From Pholidichthys leucotaenia (taxonomy: Eukaryota), in contig CM035838.1 in the NCBI GenBank assembly GCA_020510985.1, positions 342,579,700 through 342,643,699 of the forward strand: a stretch of 64,000 nucleotides of DNA. The letters run 5' to 3'. Both the position numbers and the translations under genes were made by a program. The notes under the pieces were generated by a model. That model had not been told where the DNA came from, did no database searches, and saw only the letters and a program-made list of their open reading frames with translations. How positions within the stretch are numbered: the first letter of the stretch is position 1; each line of letters starts with the position of its first letter. Shown here piece after piece: positions 46,957 through 52,420 of this stretch.

Positions 46957-47524
46957 ATATATGTCACATCCCACCGCTCATCAGCAGCGCCAGCTGCACA
47001 CACACCTGCGCCTCGTCAGCGGCGAGGGATTTAAGCCACCTCGCCCTGGGCTTCGGCCTGAAGCCGTCTGTTCTCGTCGGCTATTCTTGCTGCAAGGAAT
47101 CCCCTTCTCCAAGCAAGATTGCAAGTAAGCATCCTTACCTTCTTCTTCCAGTTATCCTCCCCTGTGCACAGGTGGATTTCCCGGCGGCGGACTACGCTCC
47201 CCAGCCATCTCCTTCTCGCTGCTGCTTCAGGCGCTCCGGGTTGCTGTCTACCGGGCTACGTCCTTGCAACGCCAGTTCCCCGGCTTAACCAAGTAAGCTT
47301 GTAGCCATTATCTCATCTCCTGTGTTGGTGTGGTGCCCGTCACCCTTCTCCCTCTGCTTCTCCCATAGGGTTGTCCGGCTGTACAGTTTCCTGTCCCCGT
47401 GCCTGACGCAGACGCCACCACCGACACATTGCCATCTCACATACACGCACACACACACACTTGTTTGTTAATAAAGCTATTAAATCTACCCTGAGCCTGC
47501 GTGCGTGTCTCCTGAGCCGTGCAT

Positions 47525-48524
47525 TATGTCAGTACGGCTTCAGCAGAGCGGCTCGGCGGACAGCGGGCTCGCACGCCGTCTTTCCACCCTCGAGGCTCGG
47601 GTGGATCTAATAGCCCATCAACAACAGGTGATTTTAACCCAATTGGGCATAATAACTAGCCGATTGGACCGCTTGGACCCCCAGCAGCCGTTCCCCCCGG
47701 CTCACCAGGGTGGCGTAGCTCCTGCTGCTCCAGCGGCCGTTCAGCCAGCTCCGGCGGCACCAACACGGCTCACACCCATTCCAACCCCCGCCCGCTTTAG
47801 CGGTAAGCTCGGTGGAGCGCGGGGGTTTGTCATGCAATGTGAGTCTGTGTTTCACCGGGTGCCCGGAGATTTTCCATCAGACCACAGCCGAATTGGCTAC
47901 ATAGGGAATCTCCTGGAGGGAAGAGCGCTTACCTGGGCTTACGCCGTAATGGCGAAGCCCAGTTACGCCACCCTCACCTATGGCCAATTCGTGAGACTGT
48001 TCCTGGAAGTGTTTGATCATTCACGTACCGAAAGCGTTCAGGTCGACCGTCTTCTCAGCCTTCAGCAGGGAAGCCGGTCGGCAGCTGACTACGTGATCGA
48101 CTTCCGGGTCGCAGCGGAGGAGGTTGGCTGAGGCGAACGATTGCTCTGTGGCATCTTCCTTTGCAGTCTCAGCGCTGGTCTGAAGGATGAACTGGCTGGA
48201 CGGGATACCCCGGAGATGTTAGCGGAGCTAATTTCCCTAGCCATCAGCTTGGATAACAGGCTACGCGAGCGGGCCTTGGAGCGGAAGTTGTCTTCTTGCC
48301 CTCGAGGTGCCTCGTCGCGCCCGCACCAAGCTCGCCCCCTGGTGTTGCCATCACCATCGTTCCCCGAGGAGTCGGAGCCGATGGTGACCGGTTGGATGAA
48401 GCTCCCTCCAGCAGAGAAACAACGCCGCCGTGAGTTGGGTCTCTGTATGTATTGCGGAGACAGTCAACATACGGTGGAGCTTTGTCCACAGAGGCCAAAT
48501 GGGGAGGTCCGCGAGTTACTGTAG
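47525..48524 (+). CDS. G gag (single premature TGA at 48129-48131 where F has Trp)
   Basis: ...[17 protein letters not shown] aligns to F's ...[21 protein letters not shown] knuckle [14 protein letters not shown]. Confidence 0.8.
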
Positions 48525-51500
48525 GGGGCCTTGCGGACGCTAATCGGTTAACTCCCCTCACTCAATTGACGCTGCCCATTCGTTTCTGTCACAACTCCAC
48601 GGGGCACCTCACCCATGCACTGGTGGATTCAGGCGCAGAGGGAAGCTTTATTTCACAGAGCCTGGCAACCCGATTGGGCATCAGTTGCCATACCCTCAAG
48701 ACTCCTCTTGCCCTGGTAAATCTCTCCCGTGTTTCCCAAGGAAGAATAACACACCAGACCATCCCCGTCCCTGTTATTATATCTGGAAACCATTGGGAGG
48801 AGATCATCTTCTACGTCCTACCTAACGCCGTATCTCCCGTCATTCTCGGATACCCCTGGCTCCGCCTCCACAACCCTGTCCTGGACTGGAGGTCTGGCAG
48901 AGTGTCCGCCTGGAGCTCCTTCTGCATGAGCACCTGCCTCCAATCTGCAGCCTGCGCCCCGTCCTCACCTTCTACTCCCAAGGACGCCGCGCCTCTGGAT
49001 CTCACCCTGGTGCCATCGGAGTTTCACGACCTGGGTATGGTATTTAGCAAATCCAAGGCGATGTCTCTTCCCCCGCACAGGCCCTATGACTGCGCTATAA
49101 ACATCCGCCAGGGGGCACCCTTATCCTCGGGGCGACTCTACAGCCTGTCTGCGCCGGAGAAGGAGGCCATGAATTCATACCTGAAGGAATCGCTGAGTGC
49201 CGGAATCATCCGCCCCTCGTCATCTCCATTAGGCGCAGGGTTCTTCTTCGTGGGCAAGAAGGACGGCTCCCTCCATCCTTGTATTGACTACCGCGCCCTG
49301 AATGACATCACGGAGAAGGACCGATACACCTTGCCCCTGATGGACACCGCCTTCCACTCCCTCCAGGGGGCGACTTGGTTCACCAAGCTGGATCTTCGCA
49401 GCGCATACCACCTCGTCCGGATCCGGGAGGGAGATGAGTGGAAGACAGCCTTCCATACCCCGAACGGCCATTTCGAGTGCCTGGTTATGCCGTTCGGGTT
49501 GACCAACGCTCCAGTCGTCTTTCAGCGCCTTATAAATGACGTCCTACGGGATTTCATCGGTCTGTTTGTGTTCGTCTACCTGGATGATATCCTCATCTTC
49601 TCCAGATCCAGGGACAAGCACCGGGTCCATGTGAGGCGGGTCCTCCAGAGGCTGCTGGAGAACCGGTTGTATGTCAAGGCTGAGAAGTGCGAGTTTTACG
49701 CTAAAACAACGTCCTTCCTTGGGTTCGTCATCTCCCACGACCAGGTGCTTCCGGACCCAGCAAAGGTGAAGGCGGTGGTGGAATGGCCCACTCCCACGTC
49801 TAGAAGACAAGTACAACAGTTTATTGGGTTCGCCAATTTCTACCGCTGCTTTGTCCCGAACTTTGGTACCATCGTCGGTCCCCTGACCCGCCTCACGTCT
49901 CCTAAGGTCTCATTCCGGTGGACTGAAGAGGCCGCGGCTGCTTTCCAGGTGCTGAAGGCGGAGTTCTCCTCCTCCCGGGTCCTCAGCCAAGTCAATCCCT
50001 CGCTGCAATGCATTGTGGAGGTGGATGCTTCGGACACCGGGGTGGGGGCGGTGTTATCTCAGCGGTCACCAGACGACGGAATCAAATGGCCCTGCGCCTT
50101 CTTCTCTCGGCGCTTGTCCCCGGAGGAACGTAATTATGACGTGGGGGACAGAGAGCTCCTCGCCATCAAGCTCGCACTGCAGGAGTGGCGTCACTGGCTA
50201 GAGGGGGCGGCCCTGCCGTTCGTGGCTCTAACCGACCACAAGAACCTGGAATATTTAAGATCTGCCAAGCGTCTGAACGCCCGCCAGGGGCGTTGGTCCT
50301 TGTTCTTCGCCAGGTTCTGCTTTAACATCACCTTCAGGCCTGGCTCCAAGAACGGCCTGCCTGATGCCCTCTCTAGGCAATTTGCCCCTGAGGCGTCTGA
50401 GGACGCAGCCCATACCATCCTGCCCAGGTCGTGCATCGTGGGAGCTGTCACTTGGGACATTGAAAGTAAGATTCGGAAGGCGCAGGAATCGGAACCAGAC
50501 CCTGGCGGCGGACCGGAGGGGAGGCTTTTTGTGCCGTCCGCGGTCCGGGGGGAGGTCATCCACTGGCTGCACACATTGAAGCTCACCTGCCACCCTGGGT
50601 CCTCCCGGATGATTGACTTACTCCAACGGTCCTTCTGGTGGCCGGGCCTGCGGAAGGACGCTGCCCGCTACACCCGGGCCTGCCCCGTCTGCGCCACCAG
50701 CAAATCAGGTAATGCCCCTCCAGCGGGTTTGCTCAAGCCTCTGCCCGTCCCTGGCAGGCCCTGGTCGCATATCGCCCTGGATTTCGTCACCGGCCTCCCG
50801 GTCTCTAACACCTTCGACACTGTCCTGACCATTGTTGATCGCTTCTCCAAGGCTGGTCACTTCATCCCATTACAAGGGCTTCCATCTGCCTTGGAGACGG
50901 CGGATCTCCTTATCCAGCACGTGGTCAGGTTGCACGGGATCCCGGTGGACGTGGTCTCGGACCGGGGCCCCCAGTTTTCCTCAGAGGTTTGGAGGTCCTT
51001 CTGTAACGCCCTGGGAGCCAAGGTAAGCCTCTCCTCCGGCCATCACCCCCAAACCAACGGGCAGTGCGAGCGGACCAACCAGGAGCTGGAGGCTGCGCTC
51101 CGCTGCGTCACAACATCCAAGCCTGCGTCCTGGAACACCCATCTCGCCTGGGTTGAGTACGCCCATAACACCGCCCGCTCTTCTGCCACTGGGATGTCCC
51201 CATTTAAGGCGTCCCTAGGCTACGACCCCCCTCTGTTCCCTATGCAGGAGAGTGAGGTAACTGTCCCTTCAGTTCGGGCGCACCTCAGGTGGTGCCGCTC
51301 CATCTGGGCGTCGGCACGCAATGCGCTTTTACACACGGCGGAGCGCAACAAGACTACGGCGGACCGGCACAGAAGACCTGCCCCAGCCTACCAGGTGGGC
51401 CAACGTGTCTACGTGTCTACCTAGGACGTCGTTTTAAAGGGTGAGAGGAGGAAGTTGGCACAGCGTTTCATGGGCCCATACCCCATCACCAGGATTATCA

Positions 51501-51840
51501 ACCCGGTGGCTGTGCATGTGGCTATTCCCCCTCCCTCCGCATCCATCCCACCTTCCACGTTTCCAAGGTGAAGCTGGCAGTCTCCCACCCCCTTTGCCCT
51601 CCTCCTGCTGCGCAGCCCGCGCCCCGGATGATTGATGGTCATCCGGCCTGGTCAGTCTCTTCCATCCTGGACTCCCGGCGCCGGGGTTGCGGGTTACAGT
51701 ACTTGGTGGACTGGGAGGGCTATGGACCTGAACATAGGCAGTGGGTACCCTCATCGTTTGTGTTGGATCCATCTCTCATCACTGAGTTCCACCGAGCGCA
51801 CCCGGAAAAACCATCGCCAGGAGGCGCTGCTAGAGGGGGG
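48452..51840 (+). CDS. G pol: protease - RT - RNase H - integrase - chromodomain (TAG at 51422-51424, then a frameshift)
   Basis: [22 protein letters not shown], integrase HHCC plus DDE, chromodomain [27 protein letters not shown] corresponds to Gln in F. Confidence 0.85.
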
Positions 51841-52420
51841 AGTACTGTCACATCTCGCCGCTCATCAGCGGCGCCAGCTGCACGCACACCTGCGCCTCGT
51901 CAGCAGCGAGGGATTTAAGCCGCCTCGCCCTGGGCTTCGGCCTGAAGCTGTCTGTTCTCGTCGGCTATTCTTGCTGCAAGGAATCCCCTTCTCCAAGCAA
52001 GATTGCAAGTAAGCATCCTTACCTTCTTCTTCCAGTTATCCTCCCCTGTGCACAGGTGGATTTCCCGGCAGCGGACTACACTCCCCAGCCATCTCCTTCT
52101 CGCTGCTGCTTCAGGCGCTCTGGGTTGCTGTCTACCAGGCTACGTCCTTGCAACGCCAGTTCCCCGGCTTAACCAAGTAAGCTTGTAGCCATTATCTCAT
52201 CTCCTGTGTTGGTGTGGTGCCCGTCACCCTTCTCCCTCTGCTTCTCCCATAGGGTTGTCCGGCTGTACGGTTTCCTGTCCCCGTGCCTGACGCAGACGCC
52301 ACCACCGACACATTGCCATCTCACATACACGCACACACACACACTTGTTTGTTAATAAAGCTATTAAATCTACCCTGAGCCTGCGTGCGTGTCTCCTGAG
52401 CCGTGCATTATGTCAATATA

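Follow-up and report, generated by a model that had tools for sequence, protein, structure and literature searches.

A stretch of DNA of 64,000 nucleotides from Pholidichthys leucotaenia (NCBI GenBank assembly GCA_020510985.1, contig CM035838.1, positions 342,579,700 to 342,643,699 of the forward strand), referred to here as the window and used throughout for numbering, contains a full-length Ty3/gypsy chromovirus that we call G. The element is inserted within the reverse transcriptase (RT) of an older chromovirus, F, which lies on the opposite strand. G carries three lesions that break its open reading frames (ORFs): two nonsense codons and a deletion of one nucleotide (nt).

Self-comparison of 40-60 kb of the window finds a single pair of direct repeats of 570 base pairs (bp), the long terminal repeats (LTRs) of G (Table 1). 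Their alignment has 12 mismatches and no gaps (97.9% identity), in agreement with the coordinates, the 570-bp length and the approximately 98% identity given in the original prediction, an earlier reading of this DNA that had also called for the mismatches to be counted. Every mismatch is a transition, 11 of the 12 at CpG sites. Each copy both begins and ends with TGTCA, giving TG..CA termini. The perfect 5-bp target-site duplication (TSD) described earlier is present as ATATA on both sides; in silico removal of G together with one ATATA yields an uninterrupted RT reading frame in F, and the insertion with its duplication is thus real rather than a chance match. F itself is bounded by LTRs at approximately 43743-44396 and 54165-54822, with 94.7% identity and a TSD of AGCAC. 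At the end of the polypurine tract (PPT), G and F share a junction in which a G-run and AGTAC are followed by the TGTCA of the LTR, and a close variant, GAGGGGGAGGTAC followed by TGTCA, occurs in a related element, L001. Paired TG..CA LTRs with a short TSD, a PPT directly 5′ of the 3′ LTR and the domain order protease (PR), RT, RNase H (RH) and integrase (IN) are those of an LTR retrotransposon of the Ty3/gypsy type (Metaviridae).

Within the element, frame 0 is open from the ATG at 47526 to 48524 save for the TGA at 48129-31, frame 2 from 48434 to the TAG at 51422-24, and frame 1 from 51445 into the 3′ LTR. The gag frame has the matches listed in Table 1, with Ty3_capsid slightly under its Pfam cut-off (28.8 vs 29.1 bits). 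Along the ORF of 990 amino acids (aa) the order of Pfam domains is PR-RT-RH-IN, with the integrase after RT and RH, and the catalytic motifs DSGA, YLDD, DAS, HHCC and D-D-E are all present in the translation. The Chromo match lies downstream of rve and SH3_Tf2-1, placing the chromodomain at the integrase C-terminus; the 1-nt deletion puts it out of frame in this copy. The PPT, gag, PR-RT-RH-IN and C-terminal chromodomain reported for G were thus all located by Pfam and by sequence reading. An env gene, and with it an endogenous retrovirus, was considered and rejected; no space is left for one, since the ORF with the chromodomain continues into the PPT and the 3′ LTR. The first position of the aromatic cage of the chromodomain is W in G, and among the relatives Y in 68, F in 37 and W in 6. 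Group I chromodomains have three aromatic cage residues, Y/W/Y in HP1 (PMC3605345), and with W/W/Y the chromodomain of G has the three aromatic residues of this group.

Table 1. Positions of the features of G, and of its host element F, in the window.
Feature	Position	Strand	Evidence or remark
G, whole element, full-length Ty3/gypsy chromovirus	46957-52420	+	
Left TSD, ATATA	46957..46961	+	same 5-mer at 52416-20
5′ LTR, 570 bp, TGTCA...TGTCA	46962..47531	+	matches 3′ LTR
TATA-like box ATTTAAG, putative promoter element, end of U3	47029..47035	+	sequence reading
Self-primer CTGAAGCCGT, putative first transcript bases, start of R	47058..47067	+	LTR position 97-106
Polyadenylation signal AATAAA, putative end of R	47470..47475	+	sequence reading
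gag, capsid and CCHC knuckle	47526..48524	+	Pfam Retrotrans_gag, DUF4939; aligned with 13 relatives
Primer-binding site (PBS) ACGGCTTCAG, self-priming type	47534..47543	+	2 nt past LTR, inside gag ORF
Lesion 1, TGA in gag	48129..48131	+	ancestral TGG (Trp); G>A at 48131, non-CpG
-1 frameshift slip site G CCA AAT	48494..48500	+	homologous N CCA AAA in F, L001, L002, L004, L005
pol, PR-RT-RH-IN-SH3-chromodomain	48497..51845	+	-1 frame from slip site; stop 51916-18 inside 3′ LTR
Frameshift-stimulating hairpin, 6 nt 3′ of slip site	48507..48539	+	RNAalifold consensus
Aspartyl protease	48602..48865	+	Pfam gag-asp_proteas, Asp_protease_2, RVP_2
Reverse transcriptase	49253..49732	+	Pfam RVT_1, E = 6e-38
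RNase H	49919..50317	+	Pfam RT_RNaseH, RT_RNaseH_2
Integrase zinc-binding domain and catalytic core	50531..51049	+	Pfam Integrase_H2C2, rve
Lesion 2, TAG in integrase C-terminal region	51422..51424	+	pol frame stop
Integrase C-terminal SH3-like (GPY/F) module	51437..51573	+	Pfam SH3_Tf2-1, E = 9e-14, repaired translation
Lesion 3, 1-nt loss in C-run, C5 instead of C6	51527..51531	+	three-frame reading and repair
Chromodomain, aromatic cage W/W/Y	51652..51795	+	Pfam Chromo, E = 4.6e-9; alignment
PPT AGAGGGGGGAG	51832..51842	+	then TAC, then 3′ LTR (3-nt gap)
3′ LTR, 570 bp	51846..52415	+	matches 5′ LTR
Right TSD, ATATA	52416..52420	+	pairs with left copy
Host element F, older chromovirus, different family (context only)	43743..54822	-	split in RT by G

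The uninterrupted gag and pol frames of an autonomous element are not found in G. The first lesion had been described as TGG>TGA at 48129; its ancestry stands, with TGG in F and Trp in the gag of 11 of 13 relatives, and the substituted base is at 48131 and not at 48129. The second, described as CAG>TAG in integrase, is likewise a TAG at the expected place with Gln in F; however, the codon in F is CAA, and 103 of the 115 relatives have Arg (60) or Lys (43) at this residue and 3 have Gln, so that an origin from CAG is plausible but not secure. The late frameshift that had also been noticed is the C5 run, which needs to be C6. The pol frame at this point (GTG GCT ATT CCC CC/T CCC TCC GC) reads VAIPP, and a single extra C restores the conserved sequence and brings the chromodomain into frame. 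No stops beyond the two described, and no other frameshifts, were found in the gag and pol frames of G. An apparent 1-nt gap relative to F at approximately 51459 was examined as a lesion and rejected, as it is F that has an extra A in an A-run and G that reads correctly.

F also lacks one base in the same poly-C run (F element position approximately 4635; minus strand, approximately 44.7 kb), and the extra A in its A-run, 75 nt upstream, restores its frame. Since F shows length changes both in the same C-run and in this nearby A-run, the homopolymers could be hot spots in F and G, either for mutation or for error in long-read assembly.

The switch of frame from gag to pol was considered as a fourth lesion and rejected: the same -1 relation, CCA AAN site and covarying hairpin are found in F and in intact relatives, and the switch is a programmed frameshift. 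Relative to gag, pol lies in the -1 frame not only in G and F but also in six relatives (L001, L002, L004, L005, L006 and L044), and in L001 the two ORFs are uninterrupted and overlap by 37 nt. The slip site lies three to four codons past the CCHC knuckle, in the form N CCA AAA G in F, L001, L002, L004 and L005. The consensus stem of the hairpin, obtained with RNAalifold from 6 elements, comprises 11 pairs, of which 6 show compensatory changes.

The sequence that follows the 5′ LTR of G, GT ACGGCTTCAG CAG..., does not start with TGG and so has no complement to the 3′ CCA end of a tRNA; a PBS of tRNA type was dropped for this reason in favour of self-priming. All ten nucleotides of the PBS (10/10) are complementary to the self-primer inside the 5′ LTR. 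The TATA-like box lies 29 nt upstream of the self-primer, from which a transcript start at 47058 is predicted, and TTTATAA is found at the same relative position in F (28-30 nt in G and F). In F the primer is ACGGAGCCGT, at LTR position 99-108, and A[T]GGCTCCGT follows the LTR. Between F and G three positions are changed on both the primer and the PBS side, in a compensatory manner, and the single G:U pair in F is accounted for by a CpG>TpG change in its PBS. Complements of unrelated sequence are present in L001 (12 nt), L005 (11 nt) and L044 (10 nt), where approximately 0.04 chance matches are expected per locus. The pairing is therefore supported by the compensatory changes in F and by independent complements in three other elements. 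Self-priming has been described in Tf1 as well as in yeast and vertebrate members of the Tf1/sushi group (PMC6317226, citing Lin & Levin 1997 and Butler et al. 2001), and the priming of G appears to be of this kind. The copy of the self-primer in the 5′ LTR of G is intact, and the copy in the 3′ LTR has a CpG>TpG change at 51949. Neither tRNAs (ARAGORN) nor other RNAs (Rfam) were found in the 64-kb window.

In both G and F, gag starts with the ATG of the ATGTCA that forms the last 6 nt of the 5′ LTR (47526-47543 in G; 54155-54172, minus strand, in F). The PBS consequently falls inside gag, at codons 3-6, in these two elements; in L001 it is found upstream of the ATG.

The LTRs also give a measure of how much the interior of G should have changed since insertion. 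The reconstructed ancestral LTR had 37 CpGs, of which approximately 15% have decayed in each copy and 85% are kept. When the LTR-derived rates are applied to the interior (4314 bp, with 277 CpGs today), approximately 48 CpG transitions and 4 other changes are predicted after insertion. Since the decay of the LTRs thus extrapolates to some 50 interior substitutions, roughly 30 amino-acid replacements would be expected in G besides any stops.

Such replacements were sought by aligning the repaired pol translation with 115 relatives, among which the median pairwise identity is 64% (59% for G). Of 380 columns with conservation of 95% or more, 28 are changed in G (7.4%, against a median of 0.8%), the highest rate of the 116 sequences; scored leave-one-out, the relatives have a median of 3 deviations and a maximum of 20. 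F deviates at 36 of the same columns. Several of the replacements in G are not lineage traits: R281H, R472C, D521N, R953W, R1028H, P1048L, R1086C and Y349C, all but the last of CpG type. R281H and Y349C are both in RT, the latter in the FEY..MPFGL motif, at positions that are invariant in the 115 relatives; at the former, F has Q through a CpG decay of its own. R1086C is in the chromodomain, at a position that is 98% conserved, and only 1 of the 16 near-invariant columns of this domain is changed, by a CpG change. In the segment comprising the C-terminal SH3-like module of integrase and the linker, 8 of 23 near-invariant columns are changed, compared with 19 of 341 upstream (Fisher p = 8e-4; the region was chosen post hoc). 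The changes in this segment (51390-51640, residues approximately 986-1070 of the repaired pol translation) are mostly transversions.

The idea that all missense deviations arose by CpG decay after insertion was rejected. With the conservation threshold lowered to 85%, the deviations of G number 54: 8 can be explained by a single CpG change and 21 by any single transition, 12 require two or more changes, and 15 are common to F. Even so, G probably carries a dozen or more damaging replacements beyond the three lesions, and repair of both stops and the frameshift would probably be insufficient to restore its activity. The earlier statement that only two nonsense transitions inactivate the element is therefore too mild, given the number of substitutions implied by the LTRs and the conserved columns changed. 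As to its being structurally complete and apparently young, the copy is complete, is younger than F and has three ORF lesions, and the damage is larger than had been supposed.

On this evidence, G is very probably a structurally complete, moderately young and dead relic, non-autonomous, and able to give rise neither to Gag nor to full-length Pol. Certain observations weigh against this explanation. About half of the deviations of G from conserved columns need transversions or two steps, and 15 of the 54 are shared with F; many of them would for these reasons predate the insertion and may be tolerated family traits. G is also slightly more distant from the reference set than the members of the set are from each other (59% vs 64%), which inflates its count of deviations. 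At the gag/pol junction, the slip site of G has AAT where all relatives have AAA, and the hairpin of G alone is no more stable than shuffled sequence (z = -0.04), so that the support for the hairpin is comparative. Among slippery A-sites, A AAU/C decoded by tRNA-Asn is a classical type.

The alternative that survives best, which we nevertheless consider unlikely, is that G was dead on arrival: the RNA that was reverse transcribed would already have contained one nonsense codon or both, through a defective parent or an RT error, and proteins from intact relatives would have mobilised the copy in trans. The two stops are transitions outside CpG sites, compared with 11 CpG changes among the 12 in the LTRs, and at the LTR rate 0.12 non-CpG nonsense changes are expected, with a probability of 0.006 of two or more. 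This non-CpG rate is, however, derived from a single LTR mismatch, and at its upper 95% bound the probability rises to 0.14. Many replacements in G require transversions; the LTRs record none of these, and such replacements would therefore be older than the insertion. Changes at conserved sites are also enriched around the TAG, in the C-terminal segment of integrase; against this, the region was picked after the data had been seen, and the chromodomain, 3′ of both the TAG and the frameshift, is well kept, which suggests that the truncation is recent. It is doubtful, and quite unlikely in our view, that the copy was defective at insertion as a member of a parasitic sub-lineage, in which stop-carrying copies are propagated in trans by intact relatives in the fish genome; were this true, the two nonsense codons and the radical changes clustered in the SH3-like C-terminal segment of integrase would be older than the integration, and the cis signals (self-primer and PBS, PPT, frameshift hairpin and LTR ends) would be kept perfect while coding capacity erodes.

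It is improbable that, by the time of the insertion, the whole lineage of G had already lost autonomy or come under relaxed selection, with the family decaying as a whole and no intact copies left. The deviation rate of G, the top rate among the 116 sequences, would fit such a history, as would the many deviations that are multi-step or transversions, and no close relative was seen in the protein clusters or metagenome contigs searched. The host genome is, however, evidently poorly represented in databases, and missing matches therefore say little. A lineage long free of selection would moreover be expected to lose some of its working parts, whereas the catalytic motifs, zinc fingers, chromodomain cage, PBS and primer, PPT, slip-site hairpin and LTR ends of G are all intact. 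Finally, the reading of G as intact or nearly so and perhaps active, its stops and homopolymer deletion being errors of sequencing or assembly, is very improbable: a 1-nt change in a C-run is a typical long-read error, and F varies in length in the same run and in the A-run nearby, but two independent stop-making substitutions are atypical of assembly error, approximately 15% of the LTR CpGs are already lost, invariant residues of catalytic domains are replaced, and no near-identical expressed protein occurs in 5.8 billion clusters that include transcript assemblies.

For the age of this dead copy, G is clearly younger than F, since its LTRs are 97.9% identical and those of F 94.7%. The divergence of the G LTRs is K = 0.021 over all sites and 1 in 496 over non-CpG sites, and 'fairly young' seems a fair description. 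The LTRs of F differ by 27 transitions and 6 transversions, 16 of the differences being of CpG type. As clocks, CpG and other changes disagree (11 vs 1 in G, 16 vs 17 in F): relative to F, the age of G is about half by CpG decay and about one fourteenth by other sites. In L001 (2463-7934 of a contig of ENA ERZ26222911) the gag and pol frames are open, yet its LTRs are just 91.7% identical, so LTR identity alone is a poor predictor of coding integrity.

F had been taken as the older paralogue of G. Older it is, but its interior is only 68% identical to that of G at the nucleotide level and the LTRs cannot be aligned save for 43 bp; it belongs to a different family and is a weak guide to the ancestral codons of G. 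Within the window, the closest kin of G are an LTR-like fragment with 73% similarity and two elements at approximately 68%. With no family consensus at hand, the ancestral codons rest on F and on distant relatives.

A search of 5.8 billion protein clusters found nothing with more than 64% aa identity to G, and a scan of metagenome contigs nothing above 67%, that over part of the query. The earlier suggestion of a recently active family with intact copies elsewhere found no support in these searches. The best protein matches, at 57-64% identity, are teleost gypsy and chromodomain polyproteins, and the named matches are all from teleosts (Poecilia, Dicentrarchus, Sarotherodon, Oryzias, Nothobranchius, Cyprinus, Gadus and Synaphobranchus). 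The best relative of solved structure is Ty3 Gag-Pol (7q5b, E = 1e-128), and the RT/RH structure 4ol8 is also matched. We would call G a chromovirus on the strength of its chromodomain and of best matches that share the chromodomain architecture. In all likelihood it belongs to the vertebrate, teleost-type Ty3/gypsy chromoviruses of the Tf1/sushi group, because architecture, self-priming, the -1 frameshift, the aromatic-cage chromodomain and the teleost matches agree. The SH3_Tf2-1 match is also in line with this kinship, which was judged by shared features. Since none of the protein clusters searched exceeds 64% identity, G would form a separate family within the group.

Among known systems, the vertebrate chromoviruses (the 'V-clade' of GyDB, with sushi-ichi of Takifugu and Amn-ichi, -ni and -san) resemble G in the order LTR-gag-PR-RT-RH-IN-chromodomain and in the 5-bp TSD, and those of the Tf1/sushi type also in the self-priming PBS, the lack of a tRNA PBS and the -1 frameshift between gag and pol. 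G differs from them in that its nearest protein is at 57-64% identity and in that, as in F, the gag ATG lies in the LTR end and the PBS in the gag ORF. Teleost polyproteins annotated as 'Gypsy retrotransposon integrase-like' have the same Pfam architecture. In Tf1 of Schizosaccharomyces pombe, as in G, the 5′ end of the transcript complements a PBS directly after the LTR and integrase ends in a chromodomain; in Tf1, gag and pol form one ORF with no frameshift, and integration is directed to RNA polymerase II promoters, not repeats. Cleavage of the self-primer by RNase H has been demonstrated for Tf1, and the same may be presumed for G. Ty3 of Saccharomyces cerevisiae, the closest solved structure, has the same PR-RT-RH-IN order; it lacks a chromodomain, is primed by tRNA-iMet, uses a +1 frameshift and targets genes transcribed by RNA polymerase III. 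The gag of G further matches the same capsid families as PEG10 and RTL1, mammalian genes domesticated from sushi-like elements (Retrotrans_gag/PEG10_N-capsid and DUF4939/RTL1-8). In PEG10 the gag-like and pol-like ORFs are still joined by a -1 frameshift. In contrast with these genes, G is a bounded, decaying transposon copy with LTRs and TSD and gives no sign of domestication.

From these features a life history of the element can be proposed. Transcription would have started approximately 97 nt into the 5′ LTR, 3′ of the TATA-like box, and the first ten or so nucleotides of the RNA would have folded onto the PBS just past the LTR, priming minus-strand synthesis without a tRNA. Gag would have been translated from the ATG in the last bases of the LTR and Gag-Pol (PR-RT-RH-IN) by a -1 frameshift at CCA AAT, aided by the hairpin, with the plus strand primed by the PPT. 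Integrase would then have made the 5-bp duplication, the chromodomain probably steering insertion to repeat chromatin methylated at lysine 9 of histone H3 (H3K9); such targeting fits the landing site, as G lies in another chromovirus within a transposon-dense stretch. After insertion, G may have been methylated; its decay has run mainly through CpG deamination, with methylation the presumed cause.

As a cleanly bounded and datable nested insertion, G may seed a family consensus and mark CpG-driven decay locally. The self-primer with its PBS and the -1 hairpin, both backed by compensatory changes, also make it a neat illustration of the cis signals found in fish sushi-like chromoviruses. Beyond annotation it matters little and opens no new question.

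The rest of the window is derived from transposons: other gypsy pol fragments, RT and endonuclease resembling those of long interspersed nuclear elements (LINEs), and retrovirus-like protease and CCHC sequences. Of the large ORFs scanned in the window, none was recognised as a host gene. The only other LTR like that of G in the window is at 42391-42731, approximately 73% identical to positions 33-371 of the G LTR, and may derive from a related family, as a solo LTR or a truncated one. At 6813-9323 (+) a chromovirus fragment (RH-IN-chromodomain), with approximately 68% nucleotide identity to G and 57% aa identity to the Dicentrarchus reference, represents a third family of the group. Retroelement remains at 11929-13423 (-), 14384-15283 (-), 17559-19619 (+) and 21107-22387 (+) comprise an ORF for retroviral-type protease and CCHC gag, an RT fragment, a LINE-like RT ORF of 686 aa and an endonuclease-like ORF. 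More intact-looking than G is an uninterrupted, ATG-started ORF of 965 aa at 28236-31133 (-) with PR-RT-RH-IN Pfam matches, which overlaps an upstream ORF of 325 aa at 31076-32053 (-). It belongs to another gypsy family, lacking a Chromo match and sharing approximately 35% identity with the chromovirus reference, and is adjoined by a related, inverted ORF of 846 aa at 24872-27412 (+).

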